20,000 bases of DNA from an uncultured virus (IMG/VR IMGVR_UViG_3300009183_000092) (taxonomy: Duplodnaviria; Heunggongvirae; Uroviricota; Caudoviricetes): IMG/VR virus record IMGVR_UViG_3300009183_000092; one strand, 5' to 3'. Each line of letters opens with the position of its first letter. The first letter of the stretch is position 1. Positions 1-20,000 of the stretch are shown piece by piece. Position numbers and translations under genes: made by a program. The notes under the pieces were generated by a model, which worked only from the letters and a program-made list of their open reading frames with translations, was not told the DNA's origin and made no database searches.

Positions 1-453
1 GCGACAGATGGAACAGGTGGAACTTCTGGTACTACAGGTACTTCAGGTACGGATGGTACTAGCGGCAGTAGTGGTACTAGCGGTAGCAGTGGAACTTCAG
101 GAACAAGTGCTACAAGTGGTAGTTCAGGAACTAGCGGAACAGATGGAACAGGTGGTACAAGTGGAACGTCAGGGACTTCAGCCACAAGTGGCACAGATGG
201 TTCGGGTGGAACTAGCGGCACTTCTGGTACGTCTGCAACAGATGGTACAGGAGGAACTTCTGGTACATCAGGCACCTCTGCAACTAGCGGTACTACAGGA
301 ACTAGTGGAACTAGTGGTACAAGTGCAACAGATGGCACAGGCGGTACAAGTGGAACAAGTGGTACAAGTGCGACAAGTGGAACAGATGGCACGTCAGCAA
401 CAAGTGGAACTAGTGGTACATCAGGAACTACAGGAACTAGTGGCTCATCAGGA
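1..453 (+). repeat. Gly-X-Y (GTS/GTT/GSS/ATD) coding repeat block 1
   Basis: 9-nt periodic ggN-acN-tcN/agY repeats. Confidence 0.9.
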
Positions 454-3400: not shown

Positions 3401-3984
3401 ATAGTTTAGAGTACAAAGCATTAGACCATATATTTTATGGTTCAGGAACTGAAAGAATGAGAATTACCAATGCAGGAAGATGTGAATTAAAATCAGATGG
3501 TTTTGTATCTCAAAAAGGAGCAAGTAATAGTGTTGGTGGTGGTTCTTTTATTGCAGTACAACAAGTAGGAACAGAAAGATGGATTTTGCAACAATTAAAT
3601 ACCTCTTATGGATTAGATTATTGGGCATATAATGGTACTAGTTGGAGTGTAATAGCAAGTATAAATGCATCAACAGGTGTTTATACTCCATTGTCAGACA
3701 TAAATAAAAAGAAAGACTTTGAGGATAGTACAATAGGTTTAAATGCTATATTAGGATTGAAGCCTACTTTATACCGTATGAAATCAGATGATACAGAAGG
3801 AAATAAAGAATTAGGATTTATTGCTCAAGAAGTAAATGAATTTATCCCTCAAGCATTTGTTGAAAGTGGTGATGAAGATAATAATTTTATAGGTTTAAAC
3901 TATAACGCAATAACCGCAGCTTTAGTAAAGTCAGTTCAAGAATTAAAAGCAGAAATAGAAGAATTAAAAGCTAAAATAAAATAA
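1..3984 (+). CDS. Tail fibre/adhesin, 5'-truncated by the window: Gly-X-Y (GTS) repeats, ERMRI..GNVGIG repeats, C-terminal peptidase S74 intramolecular chaperone
   Basis: Frame 1 is open from base 1 (ATDGTGGTSGTTGTSG...) into the listed 535..3984 ORF, so the true start is upstream. About six (ERMRI)xxxGNVGIG repeats. The C-terminus SDINKKKDFED...LKPTLY...LGFIAQEV...coiled coil is typical of S74 chaperones. Confidence 0.88.
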   Translation, partial: ATDGTGGTSGTTGTSGTDGTSGSSGTSGSSGTSGTSATSGSSGTSGTDGTGGTSGTSGTSATSGTDGSGGTSGTSGTSATDGTGGTSGTSGTSATSGTTGTSGTSGTSATDGTGGTSGTSGTSATSGTDGTSATSGTSGTSGTTGTSGSSGYSGDKYYTTSSSTFTLGNAGTIIVGTGLAYSPAQSIIVVYDASNFQECEVITYNSGTGSLQFAAPTRTVGSGTYSSWTVNLDGASGGDGSSGTSGTSGTSATAGTSGTTGTSGSSGTTGSSGTSGTSATSGTSGINGTSGTSGTSGTSGTTGTSGSAGTSGRNGIDGSSGASIANWYGSFSDSTTQVITAANTPTAITYNTVEISNGIAISGSQIQYQHTGIYEIGYSLQVEKTSGGTAVDVDIFLRLNGTNIIRTDSILSLGSNNGKQLPFVSNIFELNANDYLEVLFCSTSSHIQITGVPAQTVPYIHPAAPSIIIVTKQVGVAVGTTSGTSGTTGTSGTSGTTGTSGTSGINGTSGSSGTSGSSATSGTSGTTGTSGSSGTSGGTGSAGTSGTSGTSGLAGTNGTSGTTGTSGSSGTSGSAGTSGTTGTSGTSATSGTSGTSGTAGTSGTSVSVTGTAGYVAYFNSSSTITGNSNLFWDTTNNYLAIGNPATRLAQLHVYNASAAASMLLQTNSTTDYSEIAVRNDSSTATSYFRQYSTAATGSDFGISRAGLALFFSNYATNFAIGTRNGGALIWGTADTERMRINTSGNVGIGSSSITNGTTWGGGLQTNLLKLSAAGYPALEINTTSDGGGSIQFTYGTNLPNQVRGFIGYNSGGGTVNEFYLYNSASGPLVFVTNTTEKMRITSAGNVLVGATAAAASVFQFQVGNGTADTRAYFNPSNAFAIGVSNSSGNAYYLGVGASGSAGSFQIYSNTTGSANLTITSGGNVGIGTSSPKTLLSINGGTGAYPTLGTNVTSSLMIARNDNLIGTYFGYASDGNGWIQQMRNDSATAYNLVLQPVGGNVGIGTTPQWTLSVFKALEIDTTGLIYAGSGQMAITNNGYYASGWKYKTTDYATNYTTDGGTHVWYNAPSGTAGSALSYVERMRLNSSGNLGIGTSTPNGKLNVSNGGAEGIEFWVVSAAATNLIQSYNRSTSAWNSLEYKALDHIFYGSGTERMRITNAGRCELKSDGFVSQKGASNSVGGGSFIAVQQVGTERWILQQLNTSYGLDYWAYNGTSWSVIASINASTGVYTPLSDINKKKDFEDSTIGLNAILGLKPTLYRMKSDDTEGNKELGFIAQEVNEFIPQAFVESGDEDNNFIGLNYNAITAALVKSVQELKAEIEELKAKIK
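700..966 (+). repeat. Gly-X-Y (GTS) coding repeat block 2
   Basis: GASGGDGSSGTSGTSG...GIDGSSGA. Confidence 0.85.
1435..1815 (+). repeat. Gly-X-Y (GTS) coding repeat block 3
   Basis: GTTSGTSGTTGTSG...GTAGTSGTS. Confidence 0.88.
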
Positions 3985-3985
3985 A

Positions 3986-4357
3986 ATGAGTACAACTTAC
4001 AATTGGGTAATAAACCAAATGGACACAAAGCCTCAAGAAGGGCAATTAATGGATGTGGTAGTAACAGTACATTGGACAAGAACAGCAGAGCAATATGTAG
4101 GAGGTGAACCCATCTTAGTTTCTAGTTATGGAACTATGAATTGTACCACACCTAGTGCTACAGATTTTACAGCATACCCTGATTTAACACAAGCAGAAGT
4201 AAACTCCTGGCTTGATTCTGGGTTGGATGTGCCAACTATTGACTTGGGATTAGACAAACAAATTGAGAATATTATCAATCCACCGACTATAGTTTTGCCG
4301 CTACCTTGGATTCCTGAACCAACAACTACAACAACTACTGAGGCTCCTGTTGTTTAA
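3986..4357 (+). CDS. Conserved phage tail-fibre-associated protein (DUF7936-like)
   Basis: TYNWVINQMD..DVVVTVHW..YG..FTAYPDLTQAEVNSWL..LPLPW pattern, a family commonly found right after S74 tail fibres; family name from memory. Confidence 0.6.
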   Translation: MSTTYNWVINQMDTKPQEGQLMDVVVTVHWTRTAEQYVGGEPILVSSYGTMNCTTPSATDFTAYPDLTQAEVNSWLDSGLDVPTIDLGLDKQIENIINPPTIVLPLPWIPEPTTTTTTEAPVV

Positions 4358-4395: not shown

Positions 4396-4578
4396 ATGAA
4401 TCAAGAGACAAAGCAATTACCAGTACCATCATTAACACCAGAACATGTTCAAGTATTAATGAATTATGTTAACGAACAATTACCAACTAAGTATGGTAAA
4501 GAAATCCTAGGATTTATTGAAAAAGTAGCATTGGAAGCTGAAAAAGCATCTCAAACAGAAGAAACACAAGCTAGTTAA
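4396..4578 (+). CDS. Small hypothetical protein (60 aa)
   Basis: Has its own promoter and an A-rich leader; stop codon overlaps the stop of the convergent GT gene. Confidence 0.65.
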   Translation: MNQETKQLPVPSLTPEHVQVLMNYVNEQLPTKYGKEILGFIEKVALEAEKASQTEETQAS

Positions 4579-6590
4579 ACACTAGCTTTTTTTATTTCCT
4601 CTATTACCATATCGGCTGTTATTGACCTTTGACATTCAAAGTTCTTATTTCTTGGACACCAATTCCAAAATGGATCTAATTTAATATTAGGGTCATTCCA
4701 ACAGCTATTACACACATCAGGCTTAGTTACTCGGTAGCAATCAAATTCATGGTCTGCTTCGGTAAAATTAGAAATCATGACTACTTTTTGATTCAAAGCC
4801 CATGCTAACCAAGATAATCCACTAGATAATCCAATAAACAATTTAGCCCCTTTAATTACTTCCATTGTATTTTCTATAGATGTATCACTTATTTTATGAC
4901 AATTATCAAATGGGTTATCCTCTTTAGATACATTAACTATATTTTTATACCCTGAATCATATAAATAGTTTATAACCTTTTGCCATCCTTCCCTAGTCCA
5001 AAACTTGCACTCCATTGTAGAATTTGTGGCAATTGCAATATAATCTGGTGCTTTATTACCAAGTATCTCGGTTTTAGTTTTAAGCCTAGGTTTAACTTCT
5101 TCAAATTCTAATCCAAGTATATTGGTAGCAGCTTGCTGTAGTGGTATCGTATTGCATCTTACAGGCTCTTTATTCTCATCCCACTTCCATCCAACCCTAT
5201 ATAAGGCATAACAATTAACCGTAGCCCCAGGCTCAACTAGCTCTAATTCTGGGTAGTCCAGTATTTTATTCCAAAAACTGGACATTACCACATGGCAATT
5301 ATGCTTTTCTTGGAATTTTAAGGCATATCCACTCCATGCAATTGTGTCACCTAGACTCTTACTATCAATTACTATAAAAACCCTCTTATTGGTCAGATTT
5401 AGGGTGTTTTTGTAGATTAAATAACCATCCTGCCAAACCTTAGCTGTCCATGCGGTGAAATATTGCCTGTTTAACTTAACCCAAGAGTTTGCTTTTATTG
5501 TGTTTTCGTAAGCAATACTACCTTTTTCATCTAAAAATTGAACTTTGAAATTACTATCAGAAATACCTTTAATTTCTAAAAATGGGCCATCAACAAAATG
5601 CTGTGTAATTTTTACCTTTTGTTTTTGAATAGGTAATTCTAATAATTTCTTATAAGCTGTTTCATGAGCAAAAGCAAATATTGGTGTGGTATTATCTGTA
5701 GGTACATTGTATGTACATTTTAATGTACGTAAATCTGTATCTATTGGCTGTATGTATTTGGTAAACATATCGCCATATTGAGGTAAGTTTCTAGCTATGA
5801 TAGGTAAACCAAAACTTATGGCTTCGCGTAAAACTAATGGGTTACATTCCCAAGTGCTATTAAACATGAAAATATCAGCCATCTCCATAAAAGTATCAAC
5901 ATCTTTTCTTTCTCCCCATACCTTTACATTATCTGGTATATCTTTCATCAATGGTTCCCAATAATCTTTAAAGTTCCCAGCTTGGGAACCAACAAAATGA
6001 AATGTCATGTTAGGATATTTGCGAGCAATCTCAAGTCCTTCTCCTTGATTTTTACCCCTAGTCCATAAACCCACATTAAGAACATGTTTACCATCTTTTA
6101 CTGCATTTACTTCTTGTTTATCTATTGGATATTGTATTGTAACAAACTTAGATTCCATATTAGAAAATGTTTGCTCATGGTATGGCGTACAAAAAGCATA
6201 TAAATCAGGATAAAATAATTTTTCTTCATCAGGATTAAATGAAATATCATGACACGTTTCTACTATTCTATACTTTCTATTAGGATTATAAAGTTTAGCT
6301 ACCATCTGTCTATCTAATCTTTCTGATGGTTCGTCTATATGAATGATGTCTGGTTGCCACTGCTCAATTACTTTAAATAGCTCCATTTTATCCTCATACA
6401 AAGTAGTAAAGTTTTCTAATAGTAAACTTTTTATGGCATCACGTTGTACCACAAAATCCAAGCTATGACATTGATATTCAACTACATAATATTCATTTTC
6501 GGTATAATCTTTAAGACTTTGTATTCTTTTAAGTATAAATTGCGGGCATCCCCCCGTACTAAGATGCGGTGCTAGAAATAATATTTTCAT
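4575..6590 (-). CDS. Fusion glycosyltransferase: N-terminal GT4 (GT-B) plus C-terminal Aah/TibC-type O-heptosyltransferase (GT9-like)
   Basis: GT4 motifs MKILFLAPHLSTGG, KNQ, ADIF..S.WECNPLVLREA..GLPII. C-terminal half has SKSLGDTIAW, FIGLSSGLSWLAWAL and CNSCWND..WCPR..FECQRSIT. Confidence 0.8.
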   Translation of the reverse strand: MKILFLAPHLSTGGCPQFILKRIQSLKDYTENEYYVVEYQCHSLDFVVQRDAIKSLLLENFTTLYEDKMELFKVIEQWQPDIIHIDEPSERLDRQMVAKLYNPNRKYRIVETCHDISFNPDEEKLFYPDLYAFCTPYHEQTFSNMESKFVTIQYPIDKQEVNAVKDGKHVLNVGLWTRGKNQGEGLEIARKYPNMTFHFVGSQAGNFKDYWEPLMKDIPDNVKVWGERKDVDTFMEMADIFMFNSTWECNPLVLREAISFGLPIIARNLPQYGDMFTKYIQPIDTDLRTLKCTYNVPTDNTTPIFAFAHETAYKKLLELPIQKQKVKITQHFVDGPFLEIKGISDSNFKVQFLDEKGSIAYENTIKANSWVKLNRQYFTAWTAKVWQDGYLIYKNTLNLTNKRVFIVIDSKSLGDTIAWSGYALKFQEKHNCHVVMSSFWNKILDYPELELVEPGATVNCYALYRVGWKWDENKEPVRCNTIPLQQAATNILGLEFEEVKPRLKTKTEILGNKAPDYIAIATNSTMECKFWTREGWQKVINYLYDSGYKNIVNVSKEDNPFDNCHKISDTSIENTMEVIKGAKLFIGLSSGLSWLAWALNQKVVMISNFTEADHEFDCYRVTKPDVCNSCWNDPNIKLDPFWNWCPRNKNFECQRSITADMVIEEIKKASV

Positions 6591-7935
6591 TAAATTGGTT
6601 TAGTTTATTAATATCTTTTTCGCCATGATAGAATAAGTGGTTTTGTTCCAATGGCACTTTTTGCCAATCTTTAATAAAATATTCATAGTTTCTATATTCT
6701 AGTTTATCATGCAATCCATTAATATAACAGTATGGCAATCCTTTATATGCTTTGTAGTCATATAGCATGGTTTGTAGAATTGTTTCTTCGTTGAAGCTAG
6801 CGTATTTAGAGTTGTCCTTTAGTACAACTGGATGATTGCATCTATAATACCAAAGTTCTAAAAAATCAATACAATTTTGCCCTGCTACAAAATATCCTGT
6901 TTGCCTATAACCGGTGTTGTGTCTTTCCATTTGATTTGAACCAAACAATTCACAAGCCGGAGCTTCTAATGTACCACTTAAATCTTCCATACTTTCAGCT
7001 CCACCACGCCCATTAACTATAAGATATTCATATATGCCTTCTGTGAAATAAGGATAGCTAGAATCAGTGTCAAAATAATCAAATATGGTATCTATTTTAT
7101 CAGTAGCAATGCTATCTGTATCAATGTAGGCAACAGTTTCAGCAAAGTTTTCTAATGCGTGAGCTACTATTTTAGGGCGTTCAATTAGTAGTTTATATAT
7201 TTGTTTATCTTCCCTATCAATATATTCTTTTCTTTTCTTTAAATGTATTACATCACATTGCCATTCAATGCTTAGAGTGTTTTTTATATTTACTTTAGTT
7301 TTAGAATTAAGTAGATAAACGAAAATAGGAATATCACTATAACTTCTAATGGAATTACAACAAACATCCACAAGATCCAAATAAGACTCATCAGCATAAA
7401 GTACAAAGGCTTTTTCATGTTTTACTTTTTTGTTTATATAATAGCCATAATAATTATTGCCATAAAGAAGCTCTAAGTCTGGATATCTTTGCTTCATTAT
7501 ATCTGGCGTTAAATCTGGCTGTAAATGGGTTTCATGTGTATTCCCCTCATATTCACCTTGTTCCATTTGATATGGTACTGCAACAATATATTTTTTTTTA
7601 TTTTGTTTTAAAAACAACATTACTAATTGTCCTTCCTCTACTGTCAAATGCTCTAATACATCTCCTAAAATAAAAAAATCATATTTGTCAAGTATAACAA
7701 AATCTATCGCAAGTATGTTTTTATGATAAACTACGTCATATTTTTTCTTTAATTCATATTTGTCTATATATGGTTTCCATATTTCTATTGCATCCATTTT
7801 ATAACCATAACCACGCAATAAATCAGAATAAGTACCACATCCAGCTCCAACATCTAATATTTTAGCATCTAATGGCACATGATTCAAAAACCAATTCCTT
7901 ACAGAATCTTTGTATAACGGGTAACTTGTCGGCAT
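6559..7935 (-). CDS. Class I SAM-dependent methyltransferase fused to a GT-A fold glycosyltransferase
   Basis: ILDVGAGCG and GDVLEHL in the N-terminal part; YIDTDS (DxD), QTGYFV, NEETILQ and FYHGEK in the C-terminal part. Confidence 0.75.
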   Translation of the reverse strand: MPTSYPLYKDSVRNWFLNHVPLDAKILDVGAGCGTYSDLLRGYGYKMDAIEIWKPYIDKYELKKKYDVVYHKNILAIDFVILDKYDFFILGDVLEHLTVEEGQLVMLFLKQNKKKYIVAVPYQMEQGEYEGNTHETHLQPDLTPDIMKQRYPDLELLYGNNYYGYYINKKVKHEKAFVLYADESYLDLVDVCCNSIRSYSDIPIFVYLLNSKTKVNIKNTLSIEWQCDVIHLKKRKEYIDREDKQIYKLLIERPKIVAHALENFAETVAYIDTDSIATDKIDTIFDYFDTDSSYPYFTEGIYEYLIVNGRGGAESMEDLSGTLEAPACELFGSNQMERHNTGYRQTGYFVAGQNCIDFLELWYYRCNHPVVLKDNSKYASFNEETILQTMLYDYKAYKGLPYCYINGLHDKLEYRNYEYFIKDWQKVPLEQNHLFYHGEKDINKLNQFNENIISSTAS

Positions 7936-10684: not shown

Positions 10685-10951
10685 ATGAAACAGTTTTTTT
10701 GTGACGAAACAGGTCAATTAAGTATGAAGCGTATATGCGGTTTGCTTTGTACGGTATCTTTATGTGTTACTATGTACCACAATAGTTTTAGTGAAGAGCA
10801 TACAGCTCCCAGTGCAATTCTAGTAGAATCAGTAGCTTTGTTGGCTTTTGGTTGCTTAGGTTTAACAGCAGTAGAAAAAATATTTAAAAATAAAAACAAT
10901 AACAATGAAAGATCAGAAAACTCTGGAGAGAATACAACTCCTACATCCTAA
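10685..10951 (+). CDS. Putative holin
   Basis: Two hydrophobic segments, SMKR motif, charged tail; directly upstream of and overlapping the endolysin. Confidence 0.6.
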   Translation: MKQFFCDETGQLSMKRICGLLCTVSLCVTMYHNSFSEEHTAPSAILVESVALLAFGCLGLTAVEKIFKNKNNNNERSENSGENTTPTS

Positions 10952-11411
10952 ATTAAGAGAAGAAGCATTAACAATGTATGATGAAATTGTTGCTGCCTTA
11001 ACTGGTACAGCAATTTGTCGTTTTTCTTATACTTTAAGAACTTTTGCAGAGCAAGATGCACTATATGCACAAGGTAGAACAAAGCCTGGGGCTATCGTAA
11101 CTAAGGCCAAAGGTGGTCAATCTTACCATAACTATGGTCTAGCTATTGATATCGTATTATTAGTAGATACTGATAAAAATGGCACATTTGAGACTGCAAG
11201 CTGGGATTTAAAAACAGACTTTGATGGTGATGGTAAAAGTGATTGGCAAGAGATTGTAGCTATCTTTAAAAGATATGGCTATGAGTGGGGCGGAGATTGG
11301 AAATTTAATGACGCTCCCCACTTCCAAAAAACACTTGGTAAATCAGTTGCAGAGTTGCAAGCATTATATAACGCAGGCAAAGTAGATAAAAATAACTTTG
11401 TCTTAATATAA
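10905..11411 (+). CDS. Endolysin, M15 family (L-Ala-D-Glu-type) peptidase
   Basis: RTFAEQDALYAQGRTKPG, SYHNYGLAIDI (SxHxxGxAxD), WGGDW..DAPHFQ. Confidence 0.92.
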   Translation: MKDQKTLERIQLLHPKLREEALTMYDEIVAALTGTAICRFSYTLRTFAEQDALYAQGRTKPGAIVTKAKGGQSYHNYGLAIDIVLLVDTDKNGTFETASWDLKTDFDGDGKSDWQEIVAIFKRYGYEWGGDWKFNDAPHFQKTLGKSVAELQALYNAGKVDKNNFVLI

Positions 11412-11415
11412 ATTT

Positions 11416-12423
11416 ATGCCATCAATTAATGGTAATTCAAAAATAGCAAGGGCATACAGGGCTAAATACCCCGATATGCCCACTTTGAAGTTAGCAAGAA
11501 TAATGTACAATGAAAACAATCTAACTTTCCCAAATTTAGAGGGGGCTAGAGGTACATTAAGGTACATAGAAGGTAAAAATGGAGAAGGTCAAAGAAAAAA
11601 AATTACCAAAAAAAATACTGAATTTTTAAAAGAAGAAGCTAGGCCATACAATCCATATAGTCTGCCTAAATCAGATGAAACTGCATTTGAGCCTTATGTA
11701 TTCAAAGGACATAAGAAAGTTTTAATTCTTTCTGATATTCATGTGCCATATCATAGCATAGATGCCATAACTGCGGCTATCCAATATGCAAAAAAATCAA
11801 AGCCTGATGCCCTTCTTTTAAACGGAGATACCATAGACTGCCACAGATTAAGTCGGTTTATAAAAGATCCAAAAAAGCGTAACTTTAAGCTAGAGTTAGA
11901 TACATTCAAAGAGTTATTTGATGTGTTTGAAAAGCAATTAAAGTGCAAAATCTATTTTAAAATAGGTAATCATGAAGAAAGATACGAGCATTTCCTTTAT
12001 GAGAAAGCCGGTGAATTGGTAGGCATAGAGGAGTTTGAGTTTGAAAACATCATCAAAGCTAGAGCCAGAGGTATAGAAATTATAGGAGATAAAAGGCCTA
12101 TGAAATTAAATAATCTGTGGGGAATTCATGGCCACGAATACGTAGGTGGTATTTCGGCTCCTGTTAACCCTGCTAGGGGGTTATTCTTAAAAGCTAAGGT
12201 AAGTACCTTCCAAGGCCATAACCACCAAACAAGTGAGCATACAGAGCCTACATTGACTGGGAAAATGGTTACCACGTGGTCTCTAGGTTGTTTAAGTGAA
12301 TTGCATCCAGCCTATATGCCACTAAACAAATGGAACCATGGTTTTGCAGAGGTAGATTTAGATTCTAACGGAGAAGATTTTGAATTCAACAATAAGCGTA
12401 TCTTTAAGGGCAAAATATTATAG
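11416..12423 (+). CDS. Calcineurin-like metallophosphoesterase
   Basis: SDIH, NGDTID, GNHE, HGH and GHNH motifs in order. Confidence 0.88.
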   Translation: MPSINGNSKIARAYRAKYPDMPTLKLARIMYNENNLTFPNLEGARGTLRYIEGKNGEGQRKKITKKNTEFLKEEARPYNPYSLPKSDETAFEPYVFKGHKKVLILSDIHVPYHSIDAITAAIQYAKKSKPDALLLNGDTIDCHRLSRFIKDPKKRNFKLELDTFKELFDVFEKQLKCKIYFKIGNHEERYEHFLYEKAGELVGIEEFEFENIIKARARGIEIIGDKRPMKLNNLWGIHGHEYVGGISAPVNPARGLFLKAKVSTFQGHNHQTSEHTEPTLTGKMVTTWSLGCLSELHPAYMPLNKWNHGFAEVDLDSNGEDFEFNNKRIFKGKIL

Positions 12424-13000: not shown

Positions 13001-13198
13001 CTAATTATTTTTTATTTTATTATAATTATTAAAATCAACAGCTAATTTTATAATATTTAAAAAATCTGGGCTCTCCTCTAATCCAATAGCAAGTAAAAAT
13101 CCTAAATCCTCCATTTCTCCATCAATTTCAATTTTAGATTCATTTTCAGTTAATTCCAAATAAATTTTTGCATTTTTTGGTTTGTAGTCATATTTCAT
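13001..13198 (-). CDS. Hypothetical protein
   Basis: ORF track; tight packing in the minus-strand operon. Confidence 0.65.
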   Translation of the reverse strand: MKYDYKPKNAKIYLELTENESKIEIDGEMEDLGFLLAIGLEESPDFLNIIKLAVDFNNYNKIKNN

Positions 13199-13208
13199 TT
13201 TTTTTAAT

Positions 13209-13400
13209 TTAATCTAGTTTAATAATTAATTCATAAATATCAATGCCATTTGGTTTTACTTCCGAGTTCCATATTGCTAACATTCTTTTTCTATGATAAA
13301 CACTATGAAACTTATATTCCCTAATTAGTTTACCGCTCTTGAATAATTGCATTGTCCCCTTTATTTTGCTTCCCCAGTCTTTCGGCCTCTTGTTCATCAT
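13209..13400 (-). CDS. Hypothetical protein
   Basis: ORF track; operon context. Confidence 0.6.
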   Translation of the reverse strand: MMNKRPKDWGSKIKGTMQLFKSGKLIREYKFHSVYHRKRMLAIWNSEVKPNGIDIYELIIKLD

Positions 13401-13512
13401 AAATTTTTTTTAATTCTTTATAATCTGCAATTAATTTATTGATCCTTTCTCTCAAGGTTTCGTTTTCCAATTTAAGGAGATAGTTTTGCCCCATTTCATA
13501 TTGGTTTCTCAT
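13330..13512 (-). CDS. Small coiled-coil protein
   Basis: LKLENETLRERINKL; TAATG coupling with the upstream gene. Confidence 0.6.
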   Translation of the reverse strand: MRNQYEMGQNYLLKLENETLRERINKLIADYKELKKIYDEQEAERLGKQNKGDNAIIQER

Positions 13513-13748
13513 TAGTTGTCGGTTTCTGTGTTTGACAATATAAACTTCCTATCGGGCAATGGGTTAGCAGCCCATTTATTATATAAATCGTACATTTCCT
13601 CGTATCTCTCTTGATTATACCATGCATTGTGGTATATTTCTGCTATTATCATTTGCCTTTCGTATGGGGTGAATTCTGCAAATGTTGTGAAAGTTTGTGG
13701 TTGTGTTGGTGTTCCCAATACTTGTTCGCTGATTGATTTGTTTCCCAT
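13512..13748 (-). CDS. Hypothetical protein
   Basis: ORF track; A-rich leader. Confidence 0.65.
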   Translation of the reverse strand: MGNKSISEQVLGTPTQPQTFTTFAEFTPYERQMIIAEIYHNAWYNQERYEEMYDLYNKWAANPLPDRKFILSNTETDN

Positions 13749-13765
13749 GTTTTTTTGTTTTGTGT

Positions 13766-13969
13766 TTAAAAATTTACATCTACTGTTAATACGTGTACTT
13801 TACCTACTCTATTATACTTTATTACTTCCGGCAATATCATGTTATTCTTTATACGATATTTTATAGCCTGCTGTGTTAATGAAGCATTAGGATTCTTTCT
13901 GTTTGACCTGAAATAATCAGGACTAATTTTTTCTGAATATTCCTTAACACTAATTTGTTTCGTTTTCAT
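13766..13969 (-). CDS. Small basic putative DNA-binding protein (HTH/excisionase-like)
   Basis: ISVKEYSE...LTQQAIKYRIKNN...RVGKVHVL resembles a winged HTH. Confidence 0.5.
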   Translation of the reverse strand: MKTKQISVKEYSEKISPDYFRSNRKNPNASLTQQAIKYRIKNNMILPEVIKYNRVGKVHVLTVDVNF

Positions 13970-14162
13970 TTTTTATTTCAATTGTTTTAATAGATTCTTT
14001 GAAAGTTTCTTGTTCATTGTTAGTAATAATAGTATGAAGATAATCTTCCACTTTTGCAAGGTCAGAGCTAGCAGAATTCATTATATATCTGCCATCCTTT
14101 TCAATGTAATAAAGTACATCACCGGTAAAAGACGTTTCTTTTACGATTTCAAATTTTGCCAT
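13950..14162 (-). CDS. Hypothetical protein (start MAKFEIV, ATG 14162)
   Basis: Start trimmed from the ORF track to avoid overlap; A-rich leader. Confidence 0.65.
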   Translation of the reverse strand: MAKFEIVKETSFTGDVLYYIEKDGRYIMNSASSDLAKVEDYLHTIITNNEQETFKESIKTIEIKNENETN

Positions 14163-14175
14163 GTTTTTTGGTTTT

Positions 14176-14418
14176 TTAGTTATTAAAATATTCATTAAAT
14201 ATTGATTCAAATACGCTTAGTTTATTTGACGATGCTGAATTTATCTCTTCGGTAAATTCTTCCCATTGGTCATCATCTAAGTATATATCCCATTTCTCGG
14301 CAAGGGATTGCCACATCACAATAAGATCTTCCATGTCCAAGTATGGAAAGTTATTGTCTTTAAACATTCGGTGCATTGTGTCGCAAAGCATTGCTTCTTT
14401 TGTTAGTTCTTTACCCAT
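14176..14418 (-). CDS. Acidic hypothetical protein
   Basis: ORF track. Confidence 0.65.
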   Translation of the reverse strand: MGKELTKEAMLCDTMHRMFKDNNFPYLDMEDLIVMWQSLAEKWDIYLDDDQWEEFTEEINSASSNKLSVFESIFNEYFNN

Positions 14419-14540
14419 TTTATTATTCTTTTAAGTTCAAAAAATATGTGTGCAGTGAGGTATAAAATAATAGCTAATGGCAAACCAATAATTAACAAAT
14501 GCAAAAATTGGAGCATAGTAATGATTGTTGATTTAATCAT
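14403..14540 (-). CDS. Small membrane protein (45 aa; not in ORF track)
   Basis: MIKSTIITMLQFLHLLIIGLPLAIILYLTAHIFFELKRIIKWVKN, directly downstream of a promoter. Confidence 0.6.
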   Translation of the reverse strand: MIKSTIITMLQFLHLLIIGLPLAIILYLTAHIFFELKRIIKWVKN

Positions 14541-14555
14541 GTGTGTCGGTTTTGG

Positions 14556-14586
14556 TAAAATTAGCATTTATTTTTATTACAGCAAA
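14556..14586 (-). promoter_or_regulatory. Bacteroidota-type promoter
   Basis: TTTG(14586-14583)-19 nt-TAATTTTA(14563-14556), one mismatch to TAnnTTTG. Confidence 0.5.
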
Positions 14587-14630
14587 ATAAATTAAATTAA
14601 TTAATTTGTTAGTTGGCGCGTTCTGTGATT

Positions 14631-14819
14631 TTAGATAGAGGACAGCGCTTCCCAATAATGGTTTTCTACTTCTATGTTAAGAGCCTCTTTTAAGCCTTTT
14701 ATTTTACGCTCTACCGGTATGATATTCTTTACCTTGCCATCAGTCAGTAGCTTGTTTAATGCCTTAATTTGGCTTTTTAATTTGTTGATTTTTTGAGATG
14801 GTGTTAATGGTTTTTTCAT
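14631..14819 (-). CDS. Basic coiled-coil hypothetical protein
   Basis: ORF track. Confidence 0.65.
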   Translation of the reverse strand: MKKPLTPSQKINKLKSQIKALNKLLTDGKVKNIIPVERKIKGLKEALNIEVENHYWEALSSI

Positions 14820-14850
14820 GGTTTTTTATTTTGTTTAATATATAAAATAT

Positions 14851-14894
14851 GTGCGTTGATATCGTATGCGCACCCCACGTTAACCCAACGATAT
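14851..14894 (-). ncRNA. Unnamed intergenic structured RNA (H-type pseudoknot candidate)
   Basis: AUAUCGU-UGGGUUAACGUGGG-GUGCG-CAU-ACGAUAU-CAA-CGCAC: interleaved 7-bp and 5-bp helices, GC-rich island in an AT-rich spacer. Confidence 0.45.
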
Positions 14895-14910
14895 ATAATT
14901 AGATAAAATA

Positions 14911-15195
14911 TTAAAAGTTGGATAGGTAGTCAACTGCGGTGTAACTAACAAGAATCTTTTGGTCATCATCCAAGGATGCCAATGGGATTGCTCGGCTCCA
15001 CGATTCGCAATAGTCATATACTTGCGCCATGTCAGAGGTTGTAGTGTATTGCACACCATCACTTCCATAATTACATGAGTCACAATAAGCCTCAGCTAAA
15101 TGTTTGCTAACGAATGCATCACATTTGAATGCCTCAGCGCCATCGCAATCGGTTCCATAACCAATCACGAAATAAATTCCAATAGCTTTAGTCAT
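14911..15195 (-). CDS. Hypothetical protein
   Basis: ORF track; ATG 13 nt after HHR1. Confidence 0.65.
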   Translation of the reverse strand: MTKAIGIYFVIGYGTDCDGAEAFKCDAFVSKHLAEAYCDSCNYGSDGVQYTTTSDMAQVYDYCESWSRAIPLASLDDDQKILVSYTAVDYLSNF

Positions 15196-15208
15196 AAGTT
15201 TTATTTTT

Positions 15209-15264
15209 GGTTAATACGAGCTATTTCTAGCTCGTTTCAAGGATTCACCTATCATCAGTTAACC
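15209..15264 (-). ncRNA. Type I hammerhead ribozyme HHR1
   Basis: GGUUAA-CUGAUGA-UAGG[UGAAU]CCUU-GAAA-CGAGCUA[GAAA]UAGCUCG-UA^UUAACC; GUA site, cut between 15215 and 15214; U.U at the base of stem II. Confidence 0.85.
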
Positions 15265-15452
15265 TATGCGATAATATCATCGTGTAGCGCCTCTAATTCA
15301 TTAATCCATCCATTGTACGATATGTCACGACCATCCTCTAGGACAACACATTCAAATGTGCTTTCTAGGTCATCGTTCCACCCATTGGTAATATTTTCTT
15401 GTATTTTAGCTAGGATTTGTTCTAGTCTGATTTTGATTTCTAAATTGGTCAT
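15264..15452 (-). CDS. Hypothetical protein
   Basis: ORF track; the TAG stop overlaps the first G of HHR1. Confidence 0.65.
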   Translation of the reverse strand: MTNLEIKIRLEQILAKIQENITNGWNDDLESTFECVVLEDGRDISYNGWINELEALHDDIIA

Positions 15453-15463
15453 GTTTTTTAATT

Positions 15464-15661
15464 TTAAATAAATCTAATAATAAGATTATTGTTATCAAAT
15501 ATGTTTATGTTAAACATTCGTTCAAATTTTCTTATATCAATGGAATCTCGTTTTTGCCGAATTGATTCCGATATGAATTCATCATCGTTACATGTTAAGC
15601 AACTAAAATTGTCATCCATTTTATCTACATCAATTGAATAGACTTTAATTTGTTCTATCAT
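15464..15661 (-). CDS. Hypothetical protein
   Basis: ORF track. Confidence 0.65.
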   Translation of the reverse strand: MIEQIKVYSIDVDKMDDNFSCLTCNDDEFISESIRQKRDSIDIRKFERMFNINIFDNNNLIIRFI

Positions 15662-15665
15662 AAAA

Positions 15666-15887
15666 TTATTTTAATTGGTTTCTTAATAAATAGGATTCTA
15701 TTTTGGCATGCATGATATCAAATTGTTCCTGCATGAATTCGGTGTATCTGCTACCACCATCGCCATCATCCTCCCAAATTGTTTCAGTTGTATACTCATA
15801 GGTTTGCTTAATAAATAAATCAGCTAGCTCGCAGGCTAATTCATTAATATAGAAAGTTCCTTTTGGTGTTGCGTTTAATGTTTCCAT
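15666..15887 (-). CDS. Hypothetical protein
   Basis: ORF track. Confidence 0.7.
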   Translation of the reverse strand: METLNATPKGTFYINELACELADLFIKQTYEYTTETIWEDDGDGGSRYTEFMQEQFDIMHAKIESYLLRNQLK

Positions 15888-15888
15888 T

Positions 15889-16272
15889 TTATTTAATTTT
15901 AAATTTTGTAAATTGTTTATCTAATTCAAATGCATTCATCCAAGGTAAACTGATAGAATCATCCACAAAATAATTTGTAGGATTACCTAGAATCTCGCAG
16001 TTCCCAATTTCATCAATTTGTTGGGTGCAATATTCTTTGACATCATCATTACCCCAAGTAAGCAAATATCCAATACCCCATATCTCGCAATATGGCTCAT
16101 GATTTGCACTTTCTTGATGGTAGTTGACATCTAAGTCAGTTCCATCCTTTAATTGAAAAGAATGCCAAAAATCACCGGTATCACCGGAGGTTAAATCAAA
16201 CATAAAAACTTGTCCTAGATAATGCAAAGTCAATACTTTGTTATCATAGTCAATAACGAATTTTTTTTCCAT
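15889..16272 (-). CDS. Hypothetical protein
   Basis: ORF track; ATG 14 nt after HHR2. Confidence 0.7.
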   Translation of the reverse strand: MEKKFVIDYDNKVLTLHYLGQVFMFDLTSGDTGDFWHSFQLKDGTDLDVNYHQESANHEPYCEIWGIGYLLTWGNDDVKEYCTQQIDEIGNCEILGNPTNYFVDDSISLPWMNAFELDKQFTKFKIK

Positions 16273-16286
16273 TTTAATTTTGTTTT

Positions 16287-16338
16287 GGTTAATACCGGAT
16301 TGCTCCGGTTTCGGAAATTTATTCCTCGTCAGTTAACC
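16287..16338 (-). ncRNA. Type I hammerhead ribozyme HHR2
   Basis: GGUUAA-CUGACGA-GGAA[UAAAU]UUCC-GAAA-CCGGA[GCAA]UCCGG-UA^UUAACC; cut between 16293 and 16292. Confidence 0.95.
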
Positions 16339-16340
16339 TT

Positions 16341-16604
16341 TTAAATTGTCAATTGCCTATCATTATAGAATGGCTTTAAATCCTCATAGAATGCCTCAAA
16401 TTTTTCTTTATCTACTATGTTGGTGCAATCCACTACAAATTTATCATAGTAGCTTAATTCGTCTCTAATTGCATCATGTAGATATTCAGTTTGTTTTTTA
16501 TCACATTCGTTAACTAACATCTTGAATAATTCATCTGCATCAAATTCCTCTAGGAGATTGCTAATCCATCGCTCTAATTTTTTAGAAGGTATTTTATTTT
16601 TCAT
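16341..16604 (-). CDS. Hypothetical protein
   Basis: ORF track; stop 2 nt before HHR2. Confidence 0.7.
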   Translation of the reverse strand: MKNKIPSKKLERWISNLLEEFDADELFKMLVNECDKKQTEYLHDAIRDELSYYDKFVVDCTNIVDKEKFEAFYEDLKPFYNDRQLTI

Positions 16605-16605
16605 T

Positions 16606-16716
16606 TTACTTATTTTTTTTGAATAATATCATGTAGCATATCTTAATACCAATGGCAATGAATATGCCAAATAATACTAAGTCAAAAATTGCAGTTGCGG
16701 TTTGTAGTGTGTTCAT
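16606..16716 (-). CDS. Small single-TM protein (36 aa; not in ORF track)
   Basis: MNTLQTATAIFDLVLFGIFIAIGIKICYMILFKKNK fills the gap between two genes. Confidence 0.6.
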   Translation of the reverse strand: MNTLQTATAIFDLVLFGIFIAIGIKICYMILFKKNK

Positions 16717-16726
16717 GTTGTTTAAT

Positions 16727-17143
16727 TTAAAATTTTATAAATTGATAATCGTATTCACCTTGATATGCTCCAATAAAAATTGAATCATCGCCTAAGTTTA
16801 TTTCGTCAATCTCTTCGGGGTCTGACAATGTAATTGCGCCACTAATGAGTTTATGAAATTCTTTTTTACTTATAATTGGATGTACTTCATTTACATTGCA
16901 AAATATCATTACACCATAAAGTTTTTCAGCATTGCGAATAAAAGTAAATGAGCCTTGGTCATCACCTTTATCATATGTAATACATCCAATACTTGATTCA
17001 ATATTTTCAGCATTGGTTTGAATGTCTACTAAAGATTCCAAATATTTTTGGGCCTCAGAATCACTAGTAAATTCTTTAATGTAAGCTAGATTATCACTTG
17101 AATAACCTTCTCCGTTCCATGTTTCAGTAATTACGTATTTCAT
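16727..17143 (-). CDS. Hypothetical protein
   Basis: ORF track. Confidence 0.7.
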   Translation of the reverse strand: MKYVITETWNGEGYSSDNLAYIKEFTSDSEAQKYLESLVDIQTNAENIESSIGCITYDKGDDQGSFTFIRNAEKLYGVMIFCNVNEVHPIISKKEFHKLISGAITLSDPEEIDEINLGDDSIFIGAYQGEYDYQFIKF

Positions 17144-17161
17144 GTTGTTTAATTTAATAGT

Positions 17162-17395
17162 TTAATAATTATCTAATTCAGTCAAAATTTCGCCATCAGA
17201 TGAGATAATGCCATTATCTATCAACTGAGATGCGAAACGGCCATAAAAGCCTTGTAATTGCCAACAATCACCGGTTTTGACGAGATATGCCCATGCGCCT
17301 ATTTTTTCTCTAGGTGTAGGCTCATCCTCGCAAAAACCCTCAATAATTGAACAAGCACGATAAGAGTCCATTGGTGTTAATGTTAATGTTTCCAT
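17162..17395 (-). CDS. Conserved small phage protein (WQLQGFYGR motif)
   Basis: LVKTGDCWQLQGFYGRFA; the ORF-track TTG start lies inside HHR3, so ATG 17395 is preferred. Confidence 0.75.
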   Translation of the reverse strand: METLTLTPMDSYRACSIIEGFCEDEPTPREKIGAWAYLVKTGDCWQLQGFYGRFASQLIDNGIISSDGEILTELDNY

Positions 17396-17409
17396 GTTTA
17401 TAATTTTTT

Positions 17410-17460
17410 GGTTAAGACCACCCAAAGGTGGTTTCGGCCATTAGGCCTCGTCAGTTAACC
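17410..17460 (-). ncRNA. Type I hammerhead ribozyme HHR3
   Basis: GGUUAA-CUGACGA-GGCC[UAAU]GGCC-GAAA-CCACC[UUUG]GGUGG-UC^UUAACC; cut between 17416 and 17415. Confidence 0.95.
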
Positions 17461-18354
17461 TGCATAAATTGTCTCAAATAATCTCTCATCCAATGTCCTT
17501 TGTTGGTCAAAGGTTTTTTTCAATTTACCATGAATCAATTCATTGAATGCATTGTATACTATCCATTGGTTAGGTCTAGTATTCAATTGCTTTGTCTCGC
17601 GCTCTACAACATCAAAGATGAATCGTGCATTGGCGCTAGGCTCCGGATTCTTATCAGATGCCTCATATTTAAACAATCCTAGAGTCTTAGCAGTTACTTT
17701 AACGTAATCCTCTAAGTTGTATACCGGTCTCTCTGCAAGCACCTCAAATTTGCGCTTAAGGGTAAAGAATTCATTGTCCATGAACAATTTTACAATCTCA
17801 TCCAATTTAGGCATTACGATGTCGGTAATGGCTCCGCTATGCTTTACTGAGAATCCTATGTGAGTCTGAGCTACGTGTAATCCATTGTCACATACTTTGC
17901 GCCAAAATCCAAAGCTACCACTAGTCTTGCAACTGCCATCGTAACTATTAACGAATCGTAACATAGGGCGTAAAATATCTTTCTCACCTTTAACCTCTAC
18001 TTTGTATCGGTCATCTGCTAGGATATAATCCACTACAAAAGAGCGATTGTCACGATTAATACTACGTTGTTGGTAATAAATGTCCGCATCAATTAACTTC
18101 TCCTCTACTCCTAGGAAGAAAATCTCATTAGGCAAATGGCCATAAGAATTAGATACTACGTTCACGATTTGATTCTCACAAACGATAGCATTCTCCAAAC
18201 CCCTTCTAGACGGGATTCCGGTTAGTTTCTCCAATGGGACTACCTCAGATGTCACTAGAACATCATCTTGTCTAGAATTGGCTAAAAGGTGGCTTAATTT
18301 TGATTCTGCCTCTTGACTAGTTTTTGCTGAAAATTTGTCTTGTAATTGATTCAT
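17455..18354 (-). CDS. DUF932 (DUF945) family phage/plasmid protein
   Basis: VVSNSY..LPN..F, LRFVNSYDGS, FWRKVCDNG..., H.G and W.VYNAFNE motifs. Confidence 0.85.
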   Translation of the reverse strand: MNQLQDKFSAKTSQEAESKLSHLLANSRQDDVLVTSEVVPLEKLTGIPSRRGLENAIVCENQIVNVVSNSYGHLPNEIFFLGVEEKLIDADIYYQQRSINRDNRSFVVDYILADDRYKVEVKGEKDILRPMLRFVNSYDGSCKTSGSFGFWRKVCDNGLHVAQTHIGFSVKHSGAITDIVMPKLDEIVKLFMDNEFFTLKRKFEVLAERPVYNLEDYVKVTAKTLGLFKYEASDKNPEPSANARFIFDVVERETKQLNTRPNQWIVYNAFNELIHGKLKKTFDQQRTLDERLFETIYAG

Positions 18355-18393
18355 AAAATTAGGTCAGTTTTTTATGTGGTGGCTCCACATTAT

Positions 18394-18445
18394 GGTTAAG
18401 ACCATCCGGAGATGGTTTCGCATATTGAATGCTCCTCAGTTAACC
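18394..18445 (-). ncRNA. Type I hammerhead ribozyme HHR4
   Basis: GGUUAA-CUGAGGA-GCAU[UCAAU]AUGC-GAAA-CCAUC[UCCG]GAUGG-UC^UUAACC; cut between 18400 and 18399. Confidence 0.95.
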
Positions 18446-18449
18446 TTTG

Positions 18450-18698
18450 TTACGCTAGTCTAGGTAAAAAGTCCTCATCATCCTCTCTTAATCCATTGTA
18501 ATCGTGTGCAATTGTTTCAATGATTATTAAAGGAGTCTCAGCATTGTTTACCAATTCCTTCAGATTGTCTATGTAAGGACATAGCTTAACTGCTATATCC
18601 ATTTGTGTACGAGGTGATGCTAAATCGCCAACATACTTTTCAATGATTAATAACGTGTCACATAATTGTTCATACTTGTTGCTTAATAATTGTTCCAT
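18450..18698 (-). CDS. Hypothetical protein
   Basis: ORF track; flanked by HHR5 and HHR4; C-terminal HDYNGL....FLPR. Confidence 0.7.
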   Translation of the reverse strand: MEQLLSNKYEQLCDTLLIIEKYVGDLASPRTQMDIAVKLCPYIDNLKELVNNAETPLIIIETIAHDYNGLREDDEDFLPRLA

Positions 18699-18716
18699 GA
18701 TTGTAAATTTTTAATT

Positions 18717-18769
18717 GGTTAAGACCTGCCTAAGCAGGTTTCGGATATTGAATCCATCTTCAGTTAACC
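18717..18769 (-). ncRNA. Type I hammerhead ribozyme HHR5 (extra U after CUGAAGA)
   Basis: GGUUAA-CUGAAGA-U-GGAU[UCAAU]AUCC-GAAA-CCUGC[UUAG]GCAGG-UC^UUAACC; cut between 18723 and 18722. Confidence 0.92.
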
Positions 18770-18773
18770 TAGT

Positions 18774-18890
18774 TTAAAATCTTCTATCGTCTTGTTTATT
18801 GTGTTGTATCAATGTCTTAATGAATACAAATAATACAATAGAAATAAGGGTGAACGCGCCAATTATTATGGCATCAATTAAATTTATCAT
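18774..18890 (-). CDS. Small single-TM protein (38 aa; not in ORF track)
   Basis: MINLIDAIIIGAFTLISIVLFVFIKTLIQHNKQDDRRF; stop 4 nt before HHR5. Confidence 0.6.
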   Translation of the reverse strand: MINLIDAIIIGAFTLISIVLFVFIKTLIQHNKQDDRRF

Positions 18891-18911
18891 TTTATCTAGT
18901 ATTAAAAGTTA

Positions 18912-19133
18912 TTAAATGCAATCAGCAAACATTGTAGCAATGCTCATTGATTCGTATGTTTTAATGTTGGTTTGTTTTTCAATATCCAATGCTAATCCGA
19001 TTAAATTTCTAAGTACTTGTTTTTTTGCATCAATACAATCCATTTTTTCAGATTTCCACTCAAGGATGTTTGAACCAATAGATAATAATACTTGTTTTAC
19101 TTGATTTTCGTCAGTTAGGTTAATTTGATACAT
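18912..19133 (-). CDS. Hypothetical protein, first gene of the operon
   Basis: ORF track; ATG 11 nt after HHR6. Confidence 0.65.
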   Translation of the reverse strand: MYQINLTDENQVKQVLLSIGSNILEWKSEKMDCIDAKKQVLRNLIGLALDIEKQTNIKTYESMSIATMFADCI

Positions 19134-19144
19134 ATTATATGTTA

Positions 19145-19200
19145 TTAGGTTTCGCCATTCTGTGGCTCTTCAGTACTGCGAATATTAGCAGTAGACCTAA
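19145..19200 (-). ncRNA. Type III hammerhead ribozyme HHR6
   Basis: UUAGG-UC^UACUGC[UAAUAUUC]GCAGUA-CUGAAGA-GCCA[CAGAA]UGGC-GAAA-CCUAA; cut between 19194 and 19193. Confidence 0.93.
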
Positions 19201-19562
19201 AAGGTCAGGAATTCAATATAAGTAATAACAATGCGCTATAAATCCATATTTCAGTATGGTAGTGCTTTGTCTAATCTAGGTGGTGTTTCTCTTGTATATT
19301 ACTGCTATTCTTTGCGTACAAATAAGCCGCTTAGCTGATTTAATACTTGATACTTGACCGATTGTGGGTTGCTATGCATTGCCGTTGTCCTAACTAGATG
19401 CGGTGAACATCATCGCTTATATCTGCATCCTTTCTAGCTAGACTCTTAGCTACTATATATATTGGAGTGAATCGTTTAGGGCTATTGTGCCGACCTTTTA
19501 CATAGTCTAGAGGTAAGAGGTAGATGTGACCAAACTCAATGGTAGTAAGGGTTTGCTTGATA

Positions 19563-19601
19563 TTTCAAAGAGCGAAGTGCGATTTCGTTTCCCTCAATCG
19601 C
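19563..19601 (-). promoter_or_regulatory. Antitermination signal: hairpin followed by boxA
   Basis: GCGAUU[GAGGGAAACGA]AAUCGC (19601-19579), then CGCUCUUUGAAA (19574-19563), matching boxA GYUCUUURA. Confidence 0.65.
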
Positions 19602-19605
19602 TACG

Positions 19606-19638
19606 CTAAGGTAGTACATTATTTTATATTTGAGCAAA
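19606..19638 (-). promoter_or_regulatory. Main leftward (early) promoter, Bacteroidota type
   Basis: TTTG(19638-19635)-21 nt-TACCTTAG(19613-19606), one mismatch to TAnnTTTG, immediately followed by the hairpin and boxA. Confidence 0.6.
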
Positions 19639-20000
19639 TTAAATAAGTTTTTTTATGATTTTTTCAAGTCTTAACATTTCTTTCACAAATGCCATGCTAT
19701 GGCTTTATTGCGCATTTTAAGACGATTCTAGACACCCCAATTGTTTTTGATATAATTACCAAGGATGCCCCAAGATAATTTAAATTTGAGCAAATTAGAT
19801 TTTTAATTAATACATAACTCATTGACCAAACTAAATCCTTTAGCAATACTAATTCCTTTAGCATCATGCCCATCTCTACCACATCCCCCCCCTTCCTTAA
19901 CATACCAACCAACATATAACCAATGCAAATAAGGTAAGCAATTGCAAGACACCATGACCATAACCATGTCCATGTCCCAACCCCATAAACCAACGCCAAC

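Follow-up and report, generated by a model that had tools for sequence, protein, structure and literature searches.

Six predicted hammerhead ribozymes in an uncultured phage: one in the leader and five at gene junctions of a terminal operon that is probably early

Organization of the locus

The stretch of DNA analysed here (20,000 nucleotides (nt); hereafter the window) stems from the uncultured virus IMGVR_UViG_3300009183_000092 (Caudoviricetes) and carries, on its minus strand, an operon of small genes with six hammerhead ribozyme motifs, one of type III in the 5' leader and five of type I at gene junctions (Table 1). These six elements had been claimed, with their coordinates and strand, in a first-pass annotation made from the sequence alone. 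A hammerhead descriptor written for the present analysis, demanding a CUGANGA core, a helix II hairpin, GAAA, an A15.1-U16.1 pair, a non-G H17, and three helices, returned the same six. Indeed, exactly six complete hammerheads were retrieved when both strands of the window were scanned; all six belong to the minus strand, the plus strand giving none. Comparison with the list of open reading frames (ORFs) placed all six sense to the operon genes, as had been annotated. With the same descriptor, no hammerhead was found in 200 first-order Markov shuffles (mean 0, maximum 0). The core heptamer as such had 11 occurrences in the minus strand of the window, compared with a single one in the plus strand.

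Table 1. Hammerhead motifs, operon genes, and other features of the window; sizes of gene products are in amino acids (aa)
Feature	Position	Strand	Evidence and remarks
Type III hammerhead	19145-19200	minus	predicted cut after C19194; in 5' leader, ends 11 nt before first ATG (19133)
Type I hammerhead	18717-18769	minus	predicted cut after C18723; extra U following A9; 78.7 bits, model R1
Type I hammerhead	18394-18445	minus	predicted cut after C18400; helix III loop UCCG; 79.9 bits, model R1
Type I hammerhead	17410-17460	minus	predicted cut after C17416; 76.7 bits, model R1
Type I hammerhead	16287-16338	minus	predicted cut after A16293 (GUA site); helix III loop GCAA; 81.1 bits, model R1
Type I hammerhead	15209-15264	minus	predicted cut after A15215; 7-bp helix III, GAAA loop; 72.9 bits, model R1
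Small-gene operon bearing the array, more than 20 genes	13001-19133	minus	ORF list
73-aa gene	18912-19133	minus	ORF list
38-aa ORF	18774-18890	minus	ORF list
82-aa gene	18450-18698	minus	ORF list
DUF932 gene	17455-18354	minus	Pfam DUF932, 1.7e-15; PHROGs phrog_21518, 8.7e-106
DUF7417 gene	17162-17395	minus	DUF7417, 1.8e-13
Genes downstream of DUF7417 (138, 36, 87, 127, 73, 65, 62, and 94 aa)		minus	ORF list
Non-coding leader upstream of type III hammerhead	19195-19797	minus	two copies of 22-nt box
22-nt boxes	19776-19797 and 19620-19641	minus	about 155 nt apart
Hairpin GACCU-UUU-AGGUC	about 19195-19210	minus	overlaps helix III strand and cleavage site of type III hammerhead
G/T-rich low-complexity stretch	19880-20000	minus	at window edge, upstream of operon
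Collagen-like tail fibre	1-3984		Pfam/PHROGs
Double glycosyltransferase (671 aa, GT1 and GT9-like) and weak methyltransferase match (458 aa)	4575-7935	minus	adjoin tail-fibre gene
Endolysin	10905-11411		Pfam/PHROGs
Calcineurin-like metallophosphoesterase	11416-12423	plus	Pfam, 5.1e-10; phrog_221, 4.2e-40

Integrity of the hammerhead motifs

The catalytic core (C3 U4 G5 A6 N7 G8 A9 ... G12 A13 A14) is intact in all six copies, and so are the A15.1-U16.1 pair and the non-G residue at H17; the cleavage triplet is GUC in four copies and GUA in the two others. A Watson-Crick pair is present at 10.1-11.1 in five of the six, the U.U reported by the first-pass annotation for one copy being found at this position of the ribozyme at 15209-15264. 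The helix II closing of this copy is kept, together with helix III changes, in three related copies from loci selected by their DUF932 gene. For all five type I copies, the minimum free energy (MFE) structure is the hammerhead junction. Their helix III loops read UUAG, UCCG, UUUG, GCAA, and GAAA; three of the five are UNCG or GNRA loops, of which several had been annotated. Furthermore, the predicted cut sites give pieces of 471, 323, 984, 1123, and 1078 nt, in agreement with the sizes calculated earlier.

Sequence family and covariation

A covariance model (R1), built from the five type I copies of the window, retrieved only these five copies in the window (73-81 bits), the type III region scoring 17.6 bits and the rest of the window at most 12.7 bits. 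A signature drawn from the copies matched at least 128 stretches of IMG/VR and, among the matches listed, model R1 recognized 106 copies in 75 viral loci. For the type I copies, covariation was examined in an alignment of 99 distinct rows (A2), which was fitted to model R1, so that pairing is favoured in the counts that follow. Paired cells amounted to 98.9%, versus 74.2% after column shuffling and 24-41% when the partners were slid, and compensatory changes were seen in 14 of the 16 pairs. The slide control and the compensatory counts far exceed the fitting bias of the alignment. Across the same 99 relatives, the core positions are invariant or nearly so; A15.1-U16.1 is A-U in every row, and at H17, 78 rows have C and 21 have A. 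As to type III, RNAalifold recovered the hammerhead fold unaided from 13 copies, with compensatory changes in 12 of the 15 pairs.

Helix I does not vary. In 32 distinct type I copies, comprising those of the window and those of loci that were picked by protein homology and not by pattern, helix I reads GGUUAA without exception and is, together with the first core bases, identical in all of them (32/32), versus 16 different forms at the start of helix II in the same copies. Similarly, the unpaired A flanking helix I on either side is invariant (110/110 copies). Loop II follows the pattern U-N-A-R-U, and the 3' flank of the type I copies is rich in A, which accounts for 65-77% at positions +2 to +7. 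A tertiary contact or pseudoknot between stems I and II was sought as covariation of loop II with the 30-nt flanks, which was not clearly above shuffle level. By their sequence, the copies of the window belong to a widespread phage-borne subfamily with fixed geometry.

Position of the ribozymes relative to stop and start codons

The first-pass annotation had placed the type I copies directly at upstream stop codons, and these stops indeed lie 4, 4, and 2 nt upstream in three cases, inside helix I in one case, and in a 1-nt overlap in the last one. More precisely, the stop of the 38-aa ORF precedes the ribozyme at 18717-18769 by 4 nt, and that of the 82-aa gene precedes the ribozyme at 18394-18445 by 4 nt. 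The TAA stop of the DUF932 gene (17455-17457) constitutes the UAA of the GGUUAA helix I of the ribozyme at 17410-17460, and the first G of the ribozyme at 15209-15264 doubles as the last base of the upstream stop (TAG-G). The distance from ribozyme end to next ATG was found to be 11-39 nt in all six copies, just as annotated.

This geometry extends to the relatives. It was counted, among the matches listed, for 126 distinct type I copies in 73 loci, after removal of the duplicates L080 and L081 (copies of L077). An upstream sense stop lies at most 5 nt away or inside the ribozyme in 96 of 114 type I copies, compared with 187 of 2086 random positions and 7 of 98 positions on the opposite strand. 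The next ATG follows the cut at 16-30 nt in 87/111 copies, with a median of 23 nt (random, 109/2116; opposite strand, 3/101). Only 4 of the 126 copies lie wholly inside a sense ORF (random, 1259/2520; opposite strand, 12/126). Of the 114 scorable copies, 65 have their stop within helix I or within the core; stops are often found inside the ribozyme because GGUUAAC-UGA provides a stop codon in two of the three frames. All copies are on one strand in each of the 26 multi-copy loci, the largest arrays comprising nine copies (L008) and ten copies (L026). The type III copy heads the array in five of the seven pattern-found arrays that have one; by the descriptor, it also comes first in the window and, among the 15 relatives that share the DUF932 gene, in seven.

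Relatives and location in the phage genome

Fifteen viral contigs encode a DUF932 protein that is 76-91% identical to that of the window, and every hammerhead in these contigs shares the strand of the DUF932 gene. The type I copies of five whole relatives (about 67 kb each) are, without exception (19/19), confined to within about 7 kb of one genome end; four of the five are classed with inverted terminal repeats, three are rated 100% complete, and the operon adjoins one end. To judge from these whole relatives, the genome of the window phage is also about 67 kb; the phage occurs at freshwater sites. The clustering at one end lends the first-pass description of an early operon indirect support; the operon is probably terminal and early, the term early being drawn from the genome-end position in these five relatives only.

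Cultured phages with similarity to the window are restricted to the Flavobacterium psychrophilum phages 6H, 23T, 2A, and 1H, by their DUF932 gene only (68%), and among cultured phages none with this array was found. Reading the sequence before the ATGs of the operon revealed no GGAGG-like motif. Bacteroidota are not known to rely on Shine-Dalgarno pairing. The similarity to Flavobacterium phages and the lack of Shine-Dalgarno-like motifs suggest that the host is probably a Bacteroidota bacterium. In a bacterial genome collection, 6 of 121 pattern matches were complete hammerheads, in metagenome-assembled genome contigs of several phyla. The collection was discarded as a source for host assignment, given that 115 of the 121 matches were incomplete, roughly the chance number estimated for a collection of that size.

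In three runs of a single study, contigs with 90-95% identity to the window are missing 324 nt (18436-18759), which comprise one ribozyme and the 82-aa gene. The joint could fall anywhere within 11 letters that are common to the 5' ends of the two adjacent hammerheads, and the skip looks like an indel of a gene-plus-ribozyme cassette at the DNA level. Ribozyme-mediated splicing was rejected as its cause, as the joint lies in the shared 5' ends and the cut sites would give a skip of 18400-18722, or 323 nt. The variants listed for the ribozyme at 17410-17460 in a 90-95% identical relative are at N7 and in the loops. Besides, the 65-aa gene at 15464-15661 is absent from contigs of two runs (211-nt skip, 15454-15664, with three other letters instead), a case of single-gene mosaicism with no ribozyme at its borders. 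Inspection of the 15 relatives, without formal statistics, located homology breakpoints at nearly every gene junction, with or without ribozyme; therefore, ribozymes are no special recombination sites, and their candidacy as privileged recombination boundaries was rejected.

Gene content of the operon and its leader

Most operon genes other than those encoding the DUF932 and DUF7417 proteins match no family in Pfam or PHROGs, and a literature search on DUF932, at the level of titles, retrieved nothing functional. The distal part of the operon comprises about nine more small ORFs without hammerheads. At the ribozyme-free junctions, the spacers are 1-18 nt.

In the leader, no ORF of at least 40 aa occurs between 19195 and 19696 on either strand, and the part from 19195 to 19625 displays no excess folding (z = +1.04) and no Rfam hit; on these three grounds, a structured RNA or a small gene in 19195-19625 was rejected. 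No alignment with the leader of the window was obtained for those of L018, L027, and L029. The 22-nt box (TAATTTGCTCAAAT.TAAA.TA), of which both copies are kept in L129 and L137, may represent tandem promoters or operator sites of the operon. The GACCU/AGGUC hairpin, which wins the MFE fold, is kept in the same two relatives, with a different loop in L137; on the basis of folding models, it may act as a switch or a kinetic trap on the leader ribozyme.

The phage context that had been annotated was confirmed by Pfam and PHROGs, in that a tail fibre, an endolysin, an HNH protein, and DUF932 are present; a glycosyltransferase is encoded in the window as well. Glycans of the host or the virion may be the targets of the glycosyltransferase and methyltransferase-like proteins encoded beside the tail-fibre gene. 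Since enzymes with the calcineurin-like fold include 2',3'-cyclic phosphodiesterases that heal RNA ends and would have hammerhead products as substrates, the metallophosphoesterase was considered as an RNA-end healer, a candidate that was dropped for want of a PDB relative by sequence.

Proposed processing of the polycistron and alternative explanations

We regard it as rather likely, for the two statements jointly, that the six elements are sequence-competent hammerhead self-cleaving ribozymes and that, in this terminal, probably early, operon, they process the polycistron by self-cleavage. If the operon is transcribed as one RNA, as we infer, each element would fold during transcription and cleave itself behind its GUC or GUA triplet. 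With its cut near the 5' end, the type III copy would shed a leader of about 440 nt, its body staying behind at the start of the first gene's RNA, where it would form a hairpin-rich cap with a 5'-OH. The type I copies would be cut near their 3' end. Hence, the upstream piece would keep its stop codon, two hairpins, and a 2',3'-cyclic phosphate, and the downstream piece would begin with 5'-OH UUAACC and 13-39 A-rich, unstructured nt before the AUG. Such cleavage, if it takes place in vivo, would convert the polycistron into six defined pieces, each holding between one and about ten genes, and its presumed benefit would be that stability and translation are uncoupled from the neighbouring genes. 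The processing idea of the first-pass annotation is supported in part, being in keeping with the sense strand, the junction sites, the intact core, and the covariation. The idea itself is not new, and the absence of a ribozyme at one orthologous junction speaks against an essential role.

Several results weigh against this interpretation, and some of them bear on alternative explanations too. The first-pass annotation had proposed the Rfam hammerhead models as a check, in which no copy attained the threshold: at the gathering score, the scan of the whole window gave no hit for any hammerhead family (RF00163, RF00008, RF02275-7, RF03152). RF00163 (type I) and RF00008 (type III) yielded no match at E ≤ 10, neither in the whole window nor in 15150-19260 (4.1 kb), the sole related match at this level being RAGATH-1-hammerhead (RF03152; 17411-17484), with 23.2 bits versus a cut-off of 56.3 bits. 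This model aligns with the window copy via the core, helix III, and helix I, but a convincing counterpart of the extra 5' hairpin of RAGATH-1 is lacking. RF00163, RF00008, and RF03152 share the catalytic core and the three-way junction with the window copies, and because the covariation of the family supports the motif, the missing Rfam calls are, at the level of sequence, a limit of the models and no evidence against the motif. In addition, the U.U at 10.1-11.1 of the ribozyme at 15209-15264 is a feature on which hammerhead candidates were rejected by Perreault et al. (2011; PMC3088659, available text). Similarly, the MFE structure of the isolated type III element is not a hammerhead, a competing upstream hairpin capturing its helix III strand. 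The missing Rfam call, the U.U beside the core, and the competing fold would also fit motifs that are inactive relics or chance look-alikes, nowadays plain hairpins serving as stabilisers or terminators. This is, however, extremely improbable, for the shuffles gave no match, the core is invariant or nearly so among the distinct relatives, the helices covary, and conservation of CUGANGA, GAAA, and the UH site is not to be expected of mere hairpins. Further points on the contrary side are that neither the descriptor nor model R1 found a hammerhead in 19 kb around the DUF932 gene of phage 6H; that internal promoters may occur in the operon, a scan for sigma-70 promoters and terminators being uninformative (48 promoter-like sites versus 37.3 expected); and that, among the listed runs containing the stretch, none is recorded as RNA. 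Three runs labelled RNA-Seq and one DNA run had matching contigs, the three being rated probably DNA.

Also among the contrary results is the variable occurrence of the ribozymes. At the junction 16273-16340, between the genes at 16341-16604 and 15889-16272, the window has a 52-nt hammerhead (16287-16338), whereas the counterparts in L136 (about 4080-4100) and L137 (about 6330-6350) have a 14-nt spacer and no ribozyme; this hammerhead is also missing from one low-depth contig of run X15. Because L136 and L137 lack it at the orthologous junction, the ribozyme is, as far as sequence comparison goes, dispensable at a given junction. Across the 15 close relatives, the number of copies near DUF932 ranges from one to six by the descriptor, with at most five type I copies per locus by model R1. 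Such clean presence and absence between the same two genes, such varying copy numbers, and the relative that lacks exactly one ribozyme-plus-gene unit, with its joint in 11 shared letters, could mean that the ribozymes are active yet optional passengers, short inserts that spread between junctions by recombination and make a cheap cut after the stop, with no designed expression programme; the identical helix I and first core bases would provide short homologies for such events. We consider this unlikely, since the copies are restricted to one operon and one strand, their spacing to stop and start is strict, selection maintains an intact core and paired helices, and the breakpoints at nearly every junction single out no ribozyme. 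Alternatively, the main role could be translational, the 5'-OH end about 19-24 nt before the AUG freeing the A-rich start region from upstream structure and terminating ribosomes, as an insulator or initiation enhancer in a host without Shine-Dalgarno use. The tight distance from cut to ATG, the A-rich 3' flank, and the lack of a visible GGAGG-like motif are consistent with this, and self-cleavage of a hammerhead in the 5' untranslated region is reported, in the available text of a study on eukaryotic RNA viruses, to be essential for translation initiation (PMC13725137). Yet the ribozyme-free junctions manage with their short spacers, both in the operon and in L136 and L137, and the spacing may be an ordinary pre-ATG spacer left intact. 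Moreover, the absence of Shine-Dalgarno use is itself deduced from the sequence and from general Bacteroidota biology, for a host that is only probably of this phylum. All in all, a primarily translational role seems decidedly improbable.

Beyond processing, the excised pieces would share helix I ends (GGUUAA/UUAACC), so that a 5'-OH UUAACC end could re-pair with its own or another 3' ribozyme body into a nicked hammerhead. Joining by the ribozyme or a host ligase might then circularise or re-order gene-length phage mRNAs, and the same ends at the DNA level might let ribozyme-plus-gene cassettes come and go. This scenario is speculative and, in our estimation, very unlikely.

Comparison with known systems and significance

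Clustered hammerheads flanking genes in prophages were described by Perreault et al. (2011, PLoS Comput Biol; PMC3088659), according to whose available text three tandem prophage arrays cleave in vitro, the Agrobacterium tumefaciens set also in vivo, and the processing of a polycistron by ribozymes was put forward as a hypothesis. The likeness to the window is clear, as in both cases a phage transcript contains several hammerheads, all in the same orientation, on either side of single genes or short gene blocks. Compared with what that text describes, the window has six copies, and related viral contigs have up to ten (L026). The present copies reside in free phage genomes instead of prophages, only 6 of the 121 pattern matches in the genome collection being complete. 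Further differences are the constant GGUUAA helix I with invariant flanking A residues, the type III leader copy, and the confinement to a terminal operon. A literature search retrieved no description of a Bacteroidota-like phage subfamily or of the stop/start geometry, Dataset S1 of PMC3088659, which may list the subfamily, lying outside that search. In the available text of a review of 2019, a processing role is suggested and not established, and most genomic ribozymes are functional orphans (PMC6765202).

Two other systems invite comparison. The early polycistronic mRNA of phage T7 is cut by RNase III, a host enzyme that acts on double-stranded hairpins and leaves a 5'-phosphate and a 3'-OH. 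By analogy only, an early phage transcript would in both cases be cut at structured intercistronic sites into gene-length mRNAs; here, in contrast, the RNA would cut itself and leave a 5'-OH and a 2',3'-cyclic phosphate. Similarly, synthetic ribozyme insulators are engineered self-cleaving ribozymes that, placed before a start region, standardise the 5' end of the downstream message. They share with the present array the position of a self-cleaving ribozyme directly upstream of the start; those are engineered whereas this array is natural, and an insulator action of the latter may be considered by analogy.

The layout was published for prophages in 2011, and the window is a very clean example of it, not a new type of system. 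It adds a constant helix I, a type III leader copy, a strict geometry, presence/absence variants, operon confinement, and invisibility to Rfam. The window adds no new principle. Standard Rfam annotation overlooks a whole phage hammerhead subfamily. With six copies that have exact predicted ends, strict stop and start spacing, natural knock-out relatives, and a location in one terminal operon, the window provides a clean test case.

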